Of a DNA stretch of 64,000 nucleotides, positions 30,230-50,140 are shown in pieces. The translations under genes and the position numbers were made by a program. Numbering within the stretch: position 1 is the stretch's first letter; every line of letters begins with the position of its first letter. The DNA is from Candidatus Bathyarchaeota archaeon (GTDB taxonomy: Archaea; Thermoproteota; Bathyarchaeia; 40CM-2-53-6). The stretch spans positions 192,001 to 256,000 of the forward strand of contig CAVPLU010000004.1 of NCBI GenBank assembly GCA_963706285.1, written 5' to 3'. The notes under the pieces were generated by a model. That model was not told the origin of the DNA. It ran no database searches and worked only from the letters and a program-made list of their open reading frames with translations.

Positions 30230-30340
30230 GCCGGGGTGGCTCAGCTGGTAGAGCGCCAGCAAGGGCCGGATTGGCGAGACTCATAATCTGGAGAGCATAG
30301 GGCCCAGAAGTCGGGGGTTCGATACCCCCTCCCGGCACCA
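30230..30340 (+). tRNA. tRNA-Met(CAT), elongator type, with two non-canonical introns (anticodon stem about 30/31 and variable loop about 44-46)
   Basis: GCCGGGG/TCCCGGC-A-CCA; excising about 19 nt and about 16 nt restores CCAGA-CTCATAA-TCTGG and a 5-nt variable loop; G1-C72 argues against initiator. Confidence 0.8.
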
Positions 30341-38926: not shown

Positions 38927-39781
38927 TTGGTTAAGCGATGTCCAACATGCGGATACAACAACAGAGACGATGCCGTCTTCTGCTCAAGCTGCGGCGGTTC
39001 ACTTGCTGCCGCTGGAGCACCAATGATGAAACCAGTGCCGTCAGTTCGTGTGGTAACTCCGGTCACGTCAGGCGCCCCAATGAGGGTTCCAGCACCAGGA
39101 ATGTGTTTCTACCACCCGAGCCTTCCAGCTGTGTACATATGCAACCGTTGTGGCAGAGCAATCTGCCGTGACGACTCGAAGTCCTACATGGACCTAGTCC
39201 TCTGCCCACAGTGCTACCAAGGAATTGTGCCGCCGATGGCTATGGCTCCCCAAGCACCACAATACGCGCCAGCACCACAATACGCGCCAGCACCACAGTA
39301 TGGACCAGCATACGCACCACCACAATTTGCGCCTGGACCACAATTTGCCGGACCGATGATGGGCCCTATGGGAGCTCCCATGATGGGAGCCGGACCTGCA
39401 AGGTCGCTATGGGCTTTCATACTCGCCTTGGTTTCAGGAATTCTTGTGCTGCTCAACGCGGGACTGCTGCTAGCGTGGCAATTCTACGGCGGAACATTCC
39501 TTTGGGCGAACATATTCTTCTGGATCTGCAACATTGACCGTTCCACAGGATGTCCACTGCCTTCAGGATCTACTGCGACTGGCACGATCACATTCGTGAT
39601 CGGAGCAATCATAGGCCTAATCATAATCGTCGGATCGATTATGATGATCCTAGGATACGGCACAATCGGCAGCCTCATCATTTTCCCGCTAGCCGTCTTC
39701 AGCCTGATCATAGGCGGCGGCTTCATCGCAGGCTTCGTACTAGGCATCATCGCCGGTATCATGGGCATGTTAGGGCGATAG
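38927..39781 (+). CDS. Zinc-ribbon + B-box-like zinc finger + P/Q/Y/M-rich linker + multi-TM membrane protein
   Basis: CPTCG...FCSSCG; CFYHP...CNRCGRAICRDD...CPQC; APQY repeats; 3-4 C-terminal TM helices; GGAGG SD. Confidence 0.85.
   Translation: MVKRCPTCGYNNRDDAVFCSSCGGSLAAAGAPMMKPVPSVRVVTPVTSGAPMRVPAPGMCFYHPSLPAVYICNRCGRAICRDDSKSYMDLVLCPQCYQGIVPPMAMAPQAPQYAPAPQYAPAPQYGPAYAPPQFAPGPQFAGPMMGPMGAPMMGAGPARSLWAFILALVSGILVLLNAGLLLAWQFYGGTFLWANIFFWICNIDRSTGCPLPSGSTATGTITFVIGAIIGLIIIVGSIMMILGYGTIGSLIIFPLAVFSLIIGGGFIAGFVLGIIAGIMGMLGR
39254..39307 (+). repeat. 18-nt in-frame tandem repeat x3 (APQYAP/APQYGP)
   Basis: gcaccacaatacgcgcca twice, then gcaccacagtatggacca. Confidence 0.9.
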
Positions 39782-39798
39782 TCCTTAAATCCCCCCAG

Positions 39799-39809
39799 TT
39801 TTTTTCTTT
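39799..39809 (+). terminator. Oligo-T archaeal terminator candidate
   Basis: TTTTTTTCTTT 17 nt after the stop of the B-box membrane gene. Confidence 0.5.
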
Positions 39810-39823
39810 AACTTAGTATCCGT

Positions 39824-41478
39824 TTGGTCGTGTGTTCCGTGTCGTATGTGGCGATCTCCGGCCAAGTAGCCGAGAAGTTGGTTAGGGAGGCGAGAGATCA
39901 TCCAGAAGAGCAGGTCGTCGGTGTGTTGCTCGGCGGACAGTTCGGCAGCACCATTTCCATTGAAGATGCAGCGACAGGACCTGCCAACGCGGACGCCACA
40001 AAGGCAACGCTGACCGGGGATTCGATCGCAAGAATAGCGGATGACATAATCAATAAGAGAATAAGAGGAAGTATCGTTGGTTGGTATCATTCTCATGTTC
40101 GCGGTGGCGTCTTCATGTCCGAGACGGACGTGGAAACGCAGCTCAAACTTCAACAGTTTTCTCCTCTGGTGACAGCAATGGTGATTGACACGCAAACAGG
40201 AACATCAGGATTCTTCAGGGCTGACCCGAAGACGCGAGAGGCGGTGTCTGTGCCTTCGCAGAACGCAAGGGCCGAAGTTCATCGCCCGGATCCGCATCCT
40301 ACTATGCGCCTGAGCGAGCGACGTACCCGCAATATCCGACGCCCATGACCCAGGGCCCGTCAACTCGTACACTGTTGCTGGCACTTCTGATTATCACATT
40401 GGCCGTAACAGGAGGCATCCTGGCGCTGGTATACTACCGCAACCCAACAGTCTCCGGTGGCAGTGGTAATCTCGCGATAACTCATGCTCCACCTAGCGGG
40501 CCATTCACGATCGGGAGCCCTATAACGATCGATGCAAACGTCACCGGCTCTAAACCTACTGAACGTCACGTTGGCCTACAAGATAATCGAAGCAGCTCCC
40601 AACTCCCAGGGCGGATTGATCATTGGAAACTTGGTTCAAGTGCCCATGCTTCCGAGATCCGCAGGAGTGCACGAACCACCTGCACGTATTCGTACACTTT
40701 GCCGTCGTCTGAAATATCCGGAGTCTATGTTCAGTACTACATTTCCGCCTTCGACACTGCTTCCCCGCCTAATATTGTTCGCACTGATATCTACACTCTC
40801 AATGTGGGAGATTTCAGTTGGCGTGATGACACGACCGAGGTAGTTGCCATTCGACAAGCCCAGGCTGGCATATCACTTCCCTTGGATTCGATTAATGGCT
40901 TCAGTGACCTCATCACCATCAGAATCCTCACTCAACCGCCGCTAGGAGTTCGAATAGTTCCTATCAGCACGCAAGTTCGTCCTCCAAACGCCGCCAACCT
41001 AATAATAACCAGCACTGAAAACGCGCAGATCAGTTACAAGTACCCGATTCAAGTCGATGCCGTGTATACTGTACGCAACGTGCAGGTAATACGCTCCACA
41101 ATACTGCAGCTCACGTTGACTGACATCGACATCGCTGTCTCGCCAACCTACGCGAAGACCCAGCAATGTTATGCCTCCGATAGCTGCCTTGACTCGAATG
41201 AGTTCGCACAGTACACTGTGACGCTTACGATCTACGACGGATTTACCGCCCCGAACGGTATCCAACTGTTCCCAAGTGGTCTTCCGGATCATACTCGCTA
41301 CGAGATTCTGTTGGTCAGTCAGAAGATTGGCACGGACGAAACGCAGACATTAACTTACTCTCTCATAGTTCGCGCTGATACAGATTCCACTGTGAACAGG
41401 TACCTCTTTTCAATGATAGTCAGGGCCGGAAGTATCACACACAGTGTGGACAACATACAGTTTGAGATCGTGGACTGA
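39824..41478 (+). CDS. JAMM/MPN (Rpn11-like) domain + linker + TM helix + Ig-like ectodomain; probably one gene split near 40278 (alternatively two coupled genes)
   Basis: GWYHSHVRGGVFMSETD and AMVID; the alternative frame from about 40279 reads SSPGSASYYAPERATYPQYPTPMTQGPSTR straight into the TM helix; further compensating shift about 40555-40680; many N-x-S/T sequons after the TM. Confidence 0.78.
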
Positions 41479-41519
41479 TTGACGCAGACTTGATCGCTTG
41501 CTGGAGGTGAAAGAAGCAC

Positions 41520-41771
41520 TTGAAACTCTTCGTTCAGGCACCTATTGGGCCGCAGACAGGGCTGGCTGAGATTGATGTTATACCGGATCATACAGTCGGA
41601 GAGATCAAGCAGCAGGTATGCACCTCGTTCGGAGTTGACCCTGCTACGGTCGCGTTGATGTACGGCGGCATCATACTTGACGAGTCCAGCACAGTCAGCA
41701 GAGCCGGGATCCCTGAGAATGCCCAACTCGCACTGATGCCCTACAATATCATCGGTGGCAACGGAAGGTGA
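41520..41771 (+). CDS. Ubiquitin-like modifier precursor (ends GG-NGR)
   Basis: 83 aa, TVGEIKQQV...LMYGGIILDESSTVSRAGI ubiquitin-fold pattern, di-Gly plus 3-residue extension; GGAGGTGA SD. Confidence 0.88.
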   Translation: MKLFVQAPIGPQTGLAEIDVIPDHTVGEIKQQVCTSFGVDPATVALMYGGIILDESSTVSRAGIPENAQLALMPYNIIGGNGR

Positions 41772-42361
41772 ACCTTCCGCTTCTCTACAAGGAGAAGAAT
41801 TTCACAAACCACCAATTCCCAACGGTAATGGCTCTCAATGATCCGCCCACGGCATACGAGGGTATGCTCAGGTGCGAGAAGGGAGAAGTGAAGACTCTCG
41901 CCGAGAAGAAGATCTGGCCCTTCACCGAGTATGCGGACTGGAACAGGTTCAGGCTAGAACTTCCGGACGAGTACCCCGTGAAGCCTCCCAAAGCGATTTG
42001 GCTCTCCGACATCTCCCACCCAAACATAGTCCCCAAGGTCATGAATGCCGTCTGCGTCTCTATCATCGGCGAGAACTGGCGTCCCGACCTGAAGCTTGTC
42101 TCTGTAGTGAACGCTCTTTACTACCTCCTGTCTGATCCAAACCCTGACAACGTATTCGACCACCCCGATTGCCTCAAGGCTGCAAACGTCTGCAGATCAT
42201 ACGGATTTCCAAAAATGACAAAGCGAAAGACCGCGACACAGCAGGGCGATCTTGTTCGATTCAACATCGTTCCTGTACCTCAAACGCGGCCAAGAGAGCC
42301 TGCACCGACGGGAGATGTGATACGATTTCGAATCCTTGACAGGGAGCGAAAGGAACATTAG
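41768..42361 (+). CDS. E2 ubiquitin-conjugating enzyme
   Basis: FRLELPDEYPVKPPKA, HPNI, catalytic AVCVSII, NWRP, LLSDPNPD; GTGA overlap with the Ub gene. Confidence 0.92.
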   Translation: MNLPLLYKEKNFTNHQFPTVMALNDPPTAYEGMLRCEKGEVKTLAEKKIWPFTEYADWNRFRLELPDEYPVKPPKAIWLSDISHPNIVPKVMNAVCVSIIGENWRPDLKLVSVVNALYYLLSDPNPDNVFDHPDCLKAANVCRSYGFPKMTKRKTATQQGDLVRFNIVPVPQTRPREPAPTGDVIRFRILDRERKEH

Positions 42362-43618
42362 TTGAAAGTAAAGCTCTCGATGCCGTCTGTTCGAGACATA
42401 GAACTTGACGTTCCTTCAACAGCAACGATCAGTCACCTAAAGGAAAAGGCATGCAAGAAGTTAGGAATCGAGTCTGACCTGACAAGCATCCTATGTGATG
42501 GTGCTCGGATTGATGGGAAGCGAAGCGTCGGCAGCCTCCATCTCAAGCAGAAGCTCCTGACAGTCGACTATCTCTGGGCTCGTCATCTAATACTTTGGGG
42601 GCCGGATGGGCAGAAACGACTGAGAGGTGCAACTGTACTTGTCGCTGGTGCGGGAGCGATTGGTAATGAGGTTGCGAAGAACCTTGCAATGCTCGGCGTC
42701 AAGCGCCTACTGATCATCGATAACGATACCGTCGAACTTTCGAACACGAGCCGAATGATCTTCTTCGATCGCAAGAGCCTGGGCTTGAACAAGGCGGAAA
42801 TGCTCGCCAGAGGAATCACCCAGAAGTTCCCCTATGTTGAGGCAATTGCATGGACCGGTGCACTCGAAGACCTCCCACTCGAACACATCCTAAGTGCCGA
42901 CGTGATCGTGTGCGGTCTAGACAACGTACTCTCCAGGATATACCTAGCACAAGTTTCCAGAAGGTACTCCATACCAATGGTAGACGGAGGCATCGTTGGG
43001 TATCGCGGACGTGTCCAAGTCTACGTTCCCCCAGACACGCCATGCCCGCTGTGCACATACCCATCCTCCGAATACGGCCGCATTGCAGGGCTCAGGAACC
43101 CCTGCGATGGGCCAGCTGAAGAAACGAAGGTCCCATCTCTTCCGACGACGATCTCGTTGGTTTCTTCGATCCAATGCCAAGAGGCGACCAAACTGATCGT
43201 TGGTTACCAAAGCTACTTGAGAACTGCGATTTGGCCGAAAGAGACCGGAGAACCGCTCAGGGGCGTGCTGATGATCGACTTGCAGTACAATCGTTACAGC
43301 CTGATGGAGATCAAGCGGAATAAGAGCTGCGTTGTGTGCGGGGAAAACGGGCTGGCCGAGAAGCCTGTGCCAGTGCTGACGATCCCGATAGGAGAAATTC
43401 GCGACTCAACCTCCAGACTGCATCAGATGGTTGCTAGCAGAATGAAACTGACAGCACAGCAAGTTATGTTGTTCTTGCAGCGTCAGAACAAGACAGTGCG
43501 AGTCGAGAAAGGGCAGTCTCTTCGGCGGGCACGCATCGGTGTGGGGAGCGTCATCACCGCGGTCGCACAAGATGGACCCGACTACAGTGAAGCTGTGGTC
43601 AGGCTCACAAAGCCCTAA
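42362..43618 (+). CDS. E1 ubiquitin-activating enzyme with N-terminal Ubl domain and C-terminal UFD-like domain
   Basis: GAGAIGNEVAKNL, DNDTVELSNTSR, GLDN, zinc pairs CPLC and CVVC, candidate catalytic Cys in RNPCD; start directly abuts the E2 stop. Confidence 0.9.
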   Translation: MKVKLSMPSVRDIELDVPSTATISHLKEKACKKLGIESDLTSILCDGARIDGKRSVGSLHLKQKLLTVDYLWARHLILWGPDGQKRLRGATVLVAGAGAIGNEVAKNLAMLGVKRLLIIDNDTVELSNTSRMIFFDRKSLGLNKAEMLARGITQKFPYVEAIAWTGALEDLPLEHILSADVIVCGLDNVLSRIYLAQVSRRYSIPMVDGGIVGYRGRVQVYVPPDTPCPLCTYPSSEYGRIAGLRNPCDGPAEETKVPSLPTTISLVSSIQCQEATKLIVGYQSYLRTAIWPKETGEPLRGVLMIDLQYNRYSLMEIKRNKSCVVCGENGLAEKPVPVLTIPIGEIRDSTSRLHQMVASRMKLTAQQVMLFLQRQNKTVRVEKGQSLRRARIGVGSVITAVAQDGPDYSEAVVRLTKP

Positions 43619-43728
43619 GCCTAGGGCACATAGATGAGGTAGTCGCATTGGAGCGTCCATGGATGATGGCTATCAAACGTAGCAATGGTTATTACATGTC
43701 TGAGGCGGTATCAGATTAGGTCTGGGTC

Positions 43729-44109
43729 ATGCGACAGTGTTTATCCTGTGGAAGTAGAAACTCCGATGACGCAGCCTTCTGTAGCATGTGTGGGCTCTCC
43801 TTTGCTGGAAGCCAACCGCAGCAGTATATGCAACCAGTCGGAGCGGCGATGAAACCCGTTCCAATTGTGAAAACGATCACCCCATTGGCGCAGGCAGGCC
43901 CGCAGCAGTGGCCAGTTCCAATGGCTCGGCCGCAGATGACGATCGGATCCTGCTCTTTTCACCCTGAGCTTCCGGCATCGTACATTTGCCTTCGATGCGG
44001 CAAGCAGATATGCTTCTCCTGCACGAAAACCTACGGTCAGCTGGCGATATGCCCTGAGTGCTACTGGGCACTTGCACCACGTACAGGCACAGCGCAGCCG
44101 GGACGCTGA
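43729..44109 (+). CDS. Soluble zinc-ribbon + B-box-like protein, paralog of 38927-39781
   Basis: CLSCG...FCSMCG; CSFHP...CLRCGKQICFSC...CPEC; shared MKPVP linker motif. Confidence 0.85.
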   Translation: MRQCLSCGSRNSDDAAFCSMCGLSFAGSQPQQYMQPVGAAMKPVPIVKTITPLAQAGPQQWPVPMARPQMTIGSCSFHPELPASYICLRCGKQICFSCTKTYGQLAICPECYWALAPRTGTAQPGR

Positions 44110-44120
44110 AACGATCTTTC

Positions 44121-45727
44121 CTACGCGAGGAGCCCTTTCCTCTTCAGTCGCTCCGTGGATAGCTTGACCTCATTCACGGACAACCCAAGATCCTTCGAAG
44201 CTTGGCTAAGTGATATCTCACCATTTCGTTTCGCGATATATTGGTAGACTCGGTTATCCAGCTCCTCAAAGCCAACGGCGGCTGATGCCTGACCTCGCTT
44301 CCGGGCTCCAGCAACCGCGGTCCTGCGTCGTCTGACACCGGAGCTAAGCGATGAGCCCAGCCTTGCAAAAGATCTCGGGCGCTTCGCAATTATGAATATG
44401 ACAGCAGTGACGATTGTTGCTGCAGCGCCCAAAGAGACAATGAAGATCCACAAGGGTGCATAGTCTGTGACCCACTGTGCCTCTACTATGTAGGGTCGAT
44501 CCATCGTGACCTCATTTTCACCCGGTGGGACAGCGCTAATCACGTTCGAGGAATTGAGGCGCCAGCCAGCGAGCGTATGTTTCACTAATAGTTCTGACCC
44601 GCTGTAAGTCACATCAAACCTTGCTTTTTCCCCATCAAGATACCAGCCAGTACCTGTCGGTTCCCCAAATGAGGACGTTACCAGAAGGTAGTACTGTGTT
44701 TGATAGATCAACCGTACGTTGTGCGGTTTGTTCATCACAAGCTCCGCCGATGTTCCTGGCTGAGTCATGCCATCGATATTCCATGAAAGCCAGACAAATC
44801 GTTGAACCGAGCTTCCCGGGATTGAGATTATTTGAGGAACAGGTCCAAGAGAAGCAGTCTGGCCAGCATCGTACCAGGTGCTGTTAGGGGCTGAGATTTT
44901 CTGAGCAATGTCTGGTGGATCGTAAGTGACGTCCAATTTGTATTGTGTCTTGTATCTTGCAGTCACTGACTTGGGTCCATCCATGCGAGCAGACCCGTGG
45001 GAATCGGTACCTGTGTAGTCTCCTACCCATTGAACAAAGACCTGTCGAGTATCGGTTCCATTTGTTCCTTTAGGTGCAAGGAAATCTGCCGTAGATCCAG
45101 CGTCGAGCCAGAGAGTTGAGGGCGAGAAAAGTCCGACCGGATCATACGATATTCGAAGGATATACTGTGTCTTCCAGGTGGCAACGGCTTTCTTCGGACC
45201 ATTCATGACTATCGAGTCGGAGATTATTCCCTGCCCCGAGGCATCCTGTCCCCACTTGACAAACAGATATCTCACTCCTTCGGATCCGCTTGTCATGTTC
45301 GTGTCCAACCTGGCTTGAGCAGTTGTTCCCCCGTCGTACCAATCACTTCTAGACGGCGCTCCGTACTGAGAGACGACTTCGAGGTAGTATTGTGCCTTGT
45401 AGGTGAATGTGTGGGTGCCAGCTCCCGTGAAGGACCAGAGGTTGTCTCTGCATTGATACCTGGTTCCGTTGGCCCCGCCCACGTTTAGGTCGACGCTGAG
45501 CGTGTGCGCACCGCCAGGAGAGATGCTTAGGGTCTTCGTGTCGCCTGTTGCAATCGTTCCGTTTAGTATGCCGTCCAGGTAATATTGAGTTCTTGCTCCG
45601 CTGGAAGCCCTACCACTGTGAAGGAGACGGAGTACGCTTGAGCCTTCACGAGTGTCGGTGCGGTGACGAGAGAAATGAGGATCAGTGCGTCAAGTGCCAA
45701 GATGGCCAATCTAGTCCTCGACAACAT
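44121..45727 (-). CDS. Surface protein with about 4 divergent InlB-B-like repeats, TM helix and cytoplasmic winged helix; frameshift near 45600
   Basis: Signal peptide from ATG 45727 (MLSRTRLAILALDALILISLV), repeated QYxLxV...WYDxGxxA units, TM, C-terminal LDNRVYQYIAKRNGEISLSQASKDLGLSVNEVKLSTERLKRKGLL. Confidence 0.8.
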
Positions 45728-45939
45728 GAAGGGTGGGCCTCCGCCACCCGTTTAGCATGTGTCTAGGCCTAAAATGTATTACACTCTCGGATCTGCCTTA
45801 TCGTGCCAAAACAGCAAGCCGGTAATCAATCTCTATGTCAGATTGACTGCGCCGATATGGAGGATGCGAAGCCTGACGATACGATTTGCCAAGCCCATGA
45901 GCGCAATCGTCATAACTAATTCGGCCCACTCACTGAGAT

Positions 45940-46245
45940 ATGGCTTCCACTCCGTACACGCGAGGCAGAAGTAGAGAATACCAAGTGCTGAAGAAACTGA
46001 GACGCGAAGGGTGGTACTGCAGCAGGAGCGCAGCATCTCACGGCCCCGTGGACGTCTTCGCTGGGAAGAACGGACTCGTCCGCATGATTCAAGTGAAGAG
46101 CGGGCAAGCCAGACTGAGGCCTGGAGACAGGGAGACCCTCAAGCTTTGGGCACAAGCTTACGCCGGAGTAGCTGAGGTCTGGTATTTTGGCAAGCGCGCA
46201 GGCACAAAAATAGAAGTGATTCTCGACGCAAGAACACGACTCTAA
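45940..46245 (+). CDS. hjc: Hjc-like Holliday junction resolvase (PD-(D/E)xK)
   Basis: RGRSREY, RSAAS, PVDVFA, IQVKS. Confidence 0.75.
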   Translation: MASTPYTRGRSREYQVLKKLRREGWYCSRSAASHGPVDVFAGKNGLVRMIQVKSGQARLRPGDRETLKLWAQAYAGVAEVWYFGKRAGTKIEVILDARTRL

Positions 46246-50000: not shown

Positions 50001-50140
50001 AGACCTCAGAGGAGCGAGGCCTACCTAGCGAGAAACACCCTTCCTTCGCCAGCATTGCCTGGATCAGGTTCAAGGGGTCGACGACTCCAGTCGTCCTCTC
50101 AGCCGGGTAGACCCAGCTCCCCAACCCTCGTGAAGCAGCA
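50001..50140 (-). ncRNA. TPP riboswitch with SD-sequestering hairpin
   Basis: GGGGAGC...GCTGAGAGG...GACCCCTTGAACCTGATCCAGGCAATGCTGGCGAAGGAAG; AGGCCTC/GAGGTCT hairpin at 50022-50001; upstream of thiT. Confidence 0.92.

Follow-up and report, generated by a model that had tools for sequence, protein, structure and literature searches.

Gene content and conservation of the operon

A 64,000-nucleotide stretch of a Candidatus Bathyarchaeota archaeon genome (assembly GCA_963706285.1, contig CAVPLU010000004.1, positions 192,001 to 256,000), hereafter the window, carries an operon-like cluster for a eukaryote-type ubiquitin system that lacks a RING protein and includes B-box zinc-finger proteins and a membrane-linked JAMM protease. 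Seven consecutive products are encoded on the + strand between window positions 38927 and 44109. The gene list and coordinates of an initial annotation made from the sequence alone proved correct, with every listed gene in place, and Pfam matches together with conserved motifs bear out its description of a eukaryote-like ubiquitin/E1/E2/JAMM cluster without a RING. The products are given below with their Pfam scores (TM, transmembrane; ORF, open reading frame; aa, amino acids).

38927-39781, +, B-box TM protein, 284 aa; Zn_Ribbon_1 28.7 bits (cut-off 25), zf-B_box 17.2 bits (cut-off 24.1)
39824-40348, +, JAMM/MPN+ (Rpn11-like) metalloprotease, 174 aa; JAB 51.7 bits (cut-off 22.5)
40345-41478, +, TM-ectodomain ORF, 377 aa; no Pfam family; N-terminal hydrophobic helix
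41520-41771, +, pro-ubiquitin, 83 aa, terminus IIGG-NGR; ubiquitin 38.7 bits (cut-off 25.4)
41768-42361, +, E2, 197 aa; UQ_con 58 bits (cut-off 27)
42362-43618, +, E1, 418 aa; ThiF 162.8 bits; ubiquitin 27.8 bits (cut-off 25.4), residues 5-64
43729-44109, +, soluble zinc-ribbon and B-box protein, 126 aa; Zn_Ribbon_1 28.8 bits, zf-B_box 20.9 bits (cut-off 24.1)

The ubiquitin and E2 genes overlap by 4 nucleotides and E2 directly abuts E1, as had been noted, with the remaining intergenic gaps measuring 41-110 nucleotides. Related loci come from metagenome-assembled genomes (MAGs) under Bathyarchaeia or Bathyarchaeota labels, apart from a few filed under bacterial names. In the 20 that were fetched, gene order and neighbours are retained, and since the same order recurs in these 20 loci the cluster is not a product of chance. 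The initial annotation had proposed a ubiquitylation circuit acting at the membrane and had staked this in part on the membrane genes being conserved with the ubiquitin-E2-E1 core. They are conserved: the B-box TM and JAMM genes flank the core in most of the 20 loci and also stand beside it in a second order (locus L084). Identity to the window proteins across the 20 loci is 80-99% for ubiquitin, 59-98% for E2, 39-97% for E1, 30-95% for JAMM and 25-80% for the ectodomain. Ubiquitin is thus far better conserved than E1 or the ectodomain, as expected for a modifier with many partners, which indicates very strong constraint.

A match to the E2 was found in 29 of 41 genomes comprising the window's own genome and 40 relatives and, in a wider sample of 301 Bathyarchaeia genomes, in 55, namely 54 of the 87 from the same order and one of the 214 outside it (G051). 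Three genera of the order gave no E2 match (g2, 0/19; g3, 0/3; g13, 0/7). The carriers are one order of Bathyarchaeia and at least one genome of a second order. Guanine-cytosine (GC) content is level across the window, and the operon appears to have been inherited vertically with some losses.

Four contigs with an archaeal E2 locus are deposited under bacterial names (L049, L050, L052 and L061; Acidiferrales, Acidoferrum, Methylomirabilota and Nitrospiraceae), which is probably a matter of mis-binning. A second copy of the whole locus is present in the window's own assembly (genome G000, contig C20, locus L032), with ~93-99% protein identity to window 38927-46245. Two strains were probably binned together; the assembly contamination is given as 7.47%. 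Contigs from a single metatranscriptome library align to five operon genes at 90-99% likeness, a weak hint of expression given that carry-over of DNA is possible. None of the sequencing runs contained half of the window's words, and the best value, 0.34, reflects relatives in wetland, soil and sediment samples, shares too small to bear a claim on habitat; stretches of the window that no contig from a public run covers carry no meaning.

The ubiquitin, E2 and E1 core

The modifier was initially described as a pro-ubiquitin with residues beyond its Gly-Gly, and this is confirmed by the IIGG-NGR terminus and by the Pfam ubiquitin match above cut-off. The Gly-Gly is present in all 21 relatives listed. 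Between zero and eight residues follow it in the relatives, several genes stopping directly after Gly-Gly, so that trimming is not required everywhere. The window ubiquitin, a beta-grasp protein, contains only two lysines, K2 and K30. By sequence, the closest solved relative of the modifier is ubiquitin itself, those of E2 are eukaryotic E2s (best 4e-13) and those of E1 are Uba1 (1e-25) and UBA3 (4e-20).

The HPN motif and cysteine on which the E2 call was based are sound, with H84, P85, N86 and C96 invariant in 12 sequences. The E2 also has a conserved C-terminal tail of ~50 residues, in which F165, N166, I167, P169, P171 and F187 are invariant (12 sequences). In the window the tail (42230-42361, residues ~155-197) contains two short motifs that resemble each other, around 'RFNIVPVP' and 'IRFRI', and from its sequence it could be a candidate docking strand for a ubiquitin-like (Ubl) domain.

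Such a Ubl domain had been noted at the start of E1 and is supported there by the Pfam ubiquitin match over residues 5-64 (27.8 bits). It is weakly similar to the operon's own ubiquitin (E = 1e-5) and lacks Gly-Gly. The adenylation domain is of the ThiF type and, in 13 sequences, the ATP loop GAGAxGNE, C228, C231, C323, C326 and C248 are invariant. Cysteines 228, 231, 323 and 326 form the Cys4 zinc site, and Cys248, which lies in a short crossover region, is probably the catalytic cysteine. The C-terminal ~80 residues, annotated as a UFD, may be one; the only hint is a weak UN_NPL4 match in E1 (E = 0.034).

The membrane JAMM protease

The H-S-H-x7-S-x2-D motif of the JAMM protein is intact in the window and HSH...S..D is kept in relatives. 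The initial annotation described a JAMM-TM-ectodomain unit, which in the window is divided between two overlapping ORFs. The JAMM ORF closes with ~20 residues of unusual composition, its stop falling within the ATG of the following ORF, and the adjacent frame reads on without a stop across a Pro/Tyr/Gln linker and into the TM helix. Compared with the second copy, L032, the window is one base short near 40278, and because of this gap the last ~20 residues of the JAMM ORF represent out-of-frame read-through. The only contig from a public run that spans the site (one contig, depth 4.4) has an extra C behind 40278. In L032 (~95% identical) JAMM, linker, TM helix and ectodomain form a single ORF of 552 aa, and fusion is the rule among relatives, with a fused ORF of 505-555 aa in 12 of 16 related loci, the TM helix and ectodomain making up the C-terminal two thirds of the protein. 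A further locus of the 16, L027, has a 513-aa ORF whose distal part is too diverged for tblastn, and in three (L022, L023 and L031, the last with masked residues) the JAMM is apparently split. The annotated unit therefore holds for most of the relatives and not for the window as assembled, and the comparison of ORFs indicates that the JAMM-TM-ectodomain fusion is the ancestral state.

An AlphaFold2 (AF2) model of the ectodomain ORF (mean pLDDT 79.4) consists of a helix (residues 7-31) and, after it, beta strands only. A fold search with it returned 831 PDB matches at E <= 0.001, the best being immunoglobulin-like (Ig-like) arrays of cell-surface receptors, adhesins and an S-layer protein. Because the zinc-dependent JAMM is N-terminal, the sensible topology from this model would place JAMM inside the cell and the Ig-like domains outside, an arrangement that would resemble a single-pass receptor whose cytoplasmic domain is a deubiquitinase. 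The TM helix of the fusion and the hydrophobic segments of the B-box TM protein together substantiate the earlier count of two membrane components. Atlas clusters for both membrane proteins consist of 'hypothetical proteins', are commonest in Bathyarchaeota and serve as leads only.

The B-box proteins and the absence of a RING

The B-box TM protein comprises an N-terminal zinc ribbon, a B-box-like binuclear zinc finger of the pattern C-x2-H ... C-x2-C ... C-x2-D ... C-x2-C, a Pro/Gln/Ala-rich linker and four to five C-terminal TM helices, with four hydrophobic segments at residues 156-174, 214-232, 233-251 and 252-270 (19-mers). The family of the soluble protein has 12 invariant zinc ligands, eight in the B-box and four in the zinc ribbon. 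Ligand spacing fits a B-box (C-x2-H-x8-C-x2-C-x4-C-x2-[CD]-x9-C-x2-C), Asp standing in for one Cys in the TM paralog, and 16 of 17 members of the soluble family match zf-B_box at E <= 0.01 (best 9e-7). Thus the B-box assignment of the initial annotation falls short on the window's own scores, which are below threshold, but is sustained by the family matches and the eight invariant ligands. In a model of the soluble protein the B-box part has a pLDDT of ~87-93. A complex prediction for E2 residues 1-155, B-box residues 66-120 and two zinc ions gave a score of 0.00 with controls that were not folded, and so speaks neither for nor against binding.

The B-box proteins stand in a system that appears to lack a RING, as had been supposed. 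No RING family match above the Pfam cut-off was obtained for any of the seven operon proteins, and zf-RING_2 (PF13639) had no match in four operon-bearing genomes that are 89-100% complete (G000, G002, G023 and G039) against two in a Caldiarchaeum-type control genome (G326).

A B-box profile of 47 columns was run against the same 301 Bathyarchaeia genomes as the E2. Matches at E <= 1e-17 occur in 58 genomes, which comprise all 55 E2-positive genomes and only three of the 246 E2-negative ones (G251, G152 and G283). None of the 58 belongs to the E2-less genera g2 (0/19), g3 (0/3) and g13 (0/7). Another 25 genomes have weak matches only (1.5e-6 to 8e-4). Each E2-positive genome has one to six B-box matches, the extra copies at other loci being either a B-box with TM segments and no zinc ribbon or a soluble zinc ribbon with a B-box. 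A third B-box protein, soluble and with a zinc ribbon, is encoded elsewhere on the window's own contig (G000:C4:447867-447980; L094 1978-2442, -). Co-occurrence with E2, and multiplication beside a single E2, are what would be expected of E3s or substrate adaptors. On these sequence grounds the B-box TM protein is a candidate membrane E3 or adaptor, and the soluble B-box protein a candidate soluble E3 or adaptor.

Comparison with the Caldiarchaeum-type operon

The known archaeal counterpart is the Ub-E2-E1-srfp operon of Caldiarchaeum subterraneum with its adjacent Rpn11-like JAMM, described by Nunoura 2011 (PMC3082918), reconstituted by Hennell James 2017 (PMC5654768) and also treated by Fuchs 2018 (PMC6043591). 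In a phylum-wide sample the Bathyarchaeia E2 profile matches every genome of several other families (E ~1e-12 to 1e-18). Nine Caldarchaeales-type loci, one of them from a single-contig genome of 1,680,938 bases, served as the comparison set. E2 and E1 are present in all nine, and most have a divergent soluble JAMM followed by ubiquitin, E2 and E1. In L085 a 75-aa RING protein comes after E1, the arrangement given for C. subterraneum in the accessible text of PMC3082918 and PMC5654768.

Both operon types share a pro-ubiquitin with residues after Gly-Gly, a UBC-type E2, a single-chain ThiF-type E1 (41% identity to the window E1 over 160 aa), a nearby JAMM, and the order ubiquitin, E2, E1, small binuclear zinc-finger protein. 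From sequence, the operon core and its gene order are homologous to those of C. subterraneum. The differences concern the periphery of the core and some of its extensions. In Bathyarchaeia the soluble B-box gene occupies the slot of the small RING gene, srfp, and a BLASTP search with the soluble B-box protein as query returned nothing from srfp of the Caldiarchaeum type (E = 0.42). The JAMM gene is co-directional with the core, and its product continues into a TM helix and Ig-like ectodomain, whereas the Caldiarchaeum-type JAMM is soluble and its gene divergent. The Bathyarchaeia E1 carries an additional Ubl domain at its N-terminus and is much shorter in the stretch from the first CxxC to the conserved PSLP region, and the E2 has its conserved C-terminal tail, its similarity to Caldiarchaeum-type E2s extending only to E ~1e-12 to 1e-18.

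In four of the nine Caldarchaeales-type loci a RING regular expression also picks out, 1.3-1.7 kb past the small RING, a 4-TM protein that has its RING at the C-terminus:

L085 12856-13629, 4-TM RING protein
L086 13607-14299, 4-TM RING protein
L088 12792-13517, 4-TM RING protein
L091 13227-13946, 4-TM RING protein

The count is that of the regular expression, and four of the nine loci, being without a match to it, may still carry divergent RINGs. The accessible part of PMC3082918 makes no mention of a 4-TM RING protein near the operon. The contrast with Caldiarchaeum originally drawn, of a system with no RING and with components in the membrane, accordingly stands for the missing RING and for the membrane-bound JAMM; membrane linkage as such is not unique to Bathyarchaeia, given the 4-TM RING protein in 4/9 loci. 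A soluble and a membrane zinc-finger protein as a pair appear to be common to both operon types.

Flanking genes and other features

The operon faces a convergent gene on the opposite strand:

44121..45727, -, convergent neighbour with signal peptide, InlB-B-repeat-like ectodomain, TM helix and cytoplasmic winged helix

A frame change near 45600 interrupts this gene in the window (45563-45727 and 44121-45482, -), and in 11 relatives it forms one ORF of ~520-560 aa. Together with that in the JAMM gene this makes two frame changes within 6 kb, a sign of indel errors or of a strain in decay. The neighbour adjoins the operon throughout the order, and in the second order (L084) a homologue is found close by, two genes away in G051. 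Single-sequence searches in five relatives lacking E2 found it in none, bar one marginal winged-helix match. Its ectodomain repeat profile matches 186 of the 301 genomes, marking a widespread surface-protein family, and for this reason the neighbour was dropped as a co-occurring partner of the ubiquitin genes. A functional tie to the operon is possible, given its position beside it in two orders, and is to be taken only as a lead.

An Hjc-like gene at 45940-46245 was rejected as a member of the cluster, being the only above-cut-off match to the Hjc family in G000, G023 and G039 and so the Hjc of the lineage. Nothing indicates a connection to ESCRT, which the initial annotation had raised as something to look for: the window's own genome has Snf7, and so, equally, do five of five relatives without E2. 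Elsewhere in the window, a thiamine pyrophosphate (TPP) riboswitch match at 50023-50133 (-) in this archaeal genome scores 55.2 bits against an Rfam gathering score of 54.3, and a tRNA match at 30230-30337 (+) spans 108 bases where the model has 71 positions, on which account the tRNA probably bears an intron.

Discussion

Gene content, catalytic motifs, conservation, co-occurrence and folds are direct observations, and on balance they probably reflect a vertically inherited, eukaryote-type ubiquitylation operon whose core is homologous to that of Caldiarchaeum, which works largely at the membrane, and in which the B-box proteins are E3-like or substrate-selecting components. In this model JAMM would cut the few residues beyond Gly-Gly off pro-ubiquitin and would also strip ubiquitin from conjugates. 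E1 would adenylate ubiquitin and take it up as a thioester, probably on Cys248, before it passed to Cys96 of E2, which would then modify lysines of target proteins. A single TM helix would tether JAMM to the cytoplasmic face of the membrane with the Ig-like ectodomain outside, and the B-box/zinc-ribbon family, with its polytopic membrane and soluble members, would replace the RING as E3-like or substrate-selecting parts. With JAMM tethered and the B-box parts partly in the membrane, much of the cycle would run there. Signalling or the turnover of membrane proteins, the first of these already among the roles suggested initially, may be its purpose.

Several points weigh against this model. All of its enzymatic steps, its targets and the E3 role given to the B-box proteins are inferred from sequence. 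The window's JAMM gene is split and, if the split is real, the JAMM of this strain would be soluble. In G051 the JAMM has a TM helix without an ectodomain, and no soluble B-box gene follows the E1; as the helix is kept there, the TM anchor would be the conserved part of the fusion. The zf-B_box scores of both window proteins lie under the Pfam cut-off (17.2 and 20.9 against 24.1). Foldseek with the model of the soluble B-box protein found no match at E <= 0.001, the weak matches (best E = 0.32) being to FYVE-like, LIM, B-box and RING domains, and hhalign of B-box against archaeal RING alignments reached a probability of only 35%. Many RING E3s use an Arg or Lys directly after the last zinc ligand, and in the B-box stretches compared this residue is Tyr, Phe or His instead. 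Finally, a B-box occurs without E2 in G251 (88% complete), G152 (98%) and G283 (69%); in G152 the gene, which encodes a soluble protein (G152:C1:608074-608208, L100), has no operon remnant within 5 kb.

The B-boxes of eukaryotic TRIM/MID1-type proteins share with the archaeal proteins the spacing of eight Cys/His/Asp zinc ligands, to which the zf-B_box match in 16/17 members corresponds. Unlike them, the archaeal B-box has no adjoining RING or coiled coil; it is coupled to a zinc ribbon, with TM helices as well in one paralog. B-boxes have a RING-like cross-brace fold, and B-box1 of MID1 reportedly has weak E3 activity.

In a second explanation the ubiquitin core works as described, E2 acts without an E3, and the B-box proteins are partners, regulators or substrates of the membrane JAMM, for example by presenting peptides or pro-ubiquitin to it. 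We consider this unlikely, yet it is the alternative to be taken most seriously. Wherever a locus has both genes, the B-box TM gene immediately precedes the JAMM gene, and Burroughs, Iyer and Aravind are said to have described in 2011 prokaryotic B-box domains as partners of membrane-associated peptidases and not of ubiquitin systems. Sequence gives no tie between the B-box and archaeal RINGs, and the C. subterraneum E2 auto-ubiquitylates without an E3, according to the accessible text of PMC5654768. Against it, the soluble B-box gene sits in the exact slot of the RING gene, and a genome may hold up to six B-box matches, away from the JAMM gene, a pattern that suits substrate selectors better than partners of one protease.

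The model of a B-box-dependent ubiquitylation operon can be extended to a receptor-like ubiquitin signalling module, though we regard the extension as doubtful. Here the Ig-like ectodomain would sense a signal outside the cell and set the activity of the deubiquitinase, the B-box proteins would be RING-independent archaeal E3s, and the convergent neighbour would be a membrane-tethered regulator controlled by ubiquitylation. In outline this would resemble the ubiquitin-dependent processing of membrane-bound transcription factors in yeast.

A role in anti-virus defence of the Bil or CBASS-Cap2/Cap3 kind, with a Ubl conjugated to viral or host proteins on infection, had been offered initially and now seems very improbable. 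Bil and CBASS Cap2/Cap3 likewise encode E1, E2, JAB and Ubl together, bacterial operons of this composition act in defence (PMC10557695, from its accessible text), and PADLOC E1-E2 models show similarity to the E1 adenylation domain (best 1.1e-16). However, E2, ubiquitin and both B-box proteins match no PADLOC model and the JAB matches are marginal (5.8e-4 at best), which leaves only generic E1 and JAB similarity. In contrast to the Bil and CBASS systems, E1 and E2 are separate and eukaryote-like and the cluster is chromosomal, syntenic and lineage-wide. It keeps the same chromosomal neighbours across the order, to which it is nearly confined as expected of vertical inheritance, and its level GC and a ubiquitin conserved at 80-99% are unlike fast-evolving defence genes.

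A sulfur-carrier or SAMP-type system, in which E1 and a Ubl serve cofactor synthesis or tRNA thiolation and mimic conjugation, is the least credible explanation: Haloferax SAMP/UbaA/HvJAMM1 shares the Ubl, E1 and JAMM desampylase, and the window E1 matches MoeB/ThiF/UbaA models, but all far below their cut-offs (MoeB 110.7 bits against 449), as does the JAMM fusion the desampylase model (30.1 bits against 130), the closest solved E1 relatives are Uba1 and UBA3, the modifier matches Pfam ubiquitin and not ThiS/MoaD, and SAMP systems lack an E2, so that the presence in Bathyarchaeia of a UBC-fold E2 with invariant HPN and Cys excludes such a role.

A ubiquitin system as such is not new to this part of the archaeal tree. 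Saw et al. 2015 (PMC4571567) report, in the accessible part of the paper, 'a ubiquitin protein modifier system' in two MCG-like single-cell genomes; its presence in the wider group is already published, and it is the B-box and receptor-like JAMM features that are unusual. Our literature search found no description of the B-box or membrane-JAMM make-up of this operon, within a literature whose supplements were beyond reach and may show related clusters, for example Supplementary Fig. 1 of PMC5654768 ('Cluster III').

Archaeal ubiquitin operons are the best models for the origin of the eukaryotic system, and the reconstituted example has a RING protein and a soluble Rpn11. The Bathyarchaeia operon suggests that the same core can run with the B-box, a different binuclear zinc finger that is found beside RINGs in eukaryotic TRIM ligases and that here forms a family multiplying within genomes, much like E3s. 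It further suggests that a deubiquitinase can be a single-pass membrane protein with an Ig-like ectodomain, and we know of no eukaryotic JAMM enzyme with this architecture of TM helix and Ig-like ectodomain. The comparison also draws attention to the membrane-anchored RING near the Caldiarchaeum-type operon. If the operon were truly a receptor-like module, it would represent transmembrane signalling through ubiquitin in a prokaryote, and B-box E3s would predate the origin of eukaryotes.

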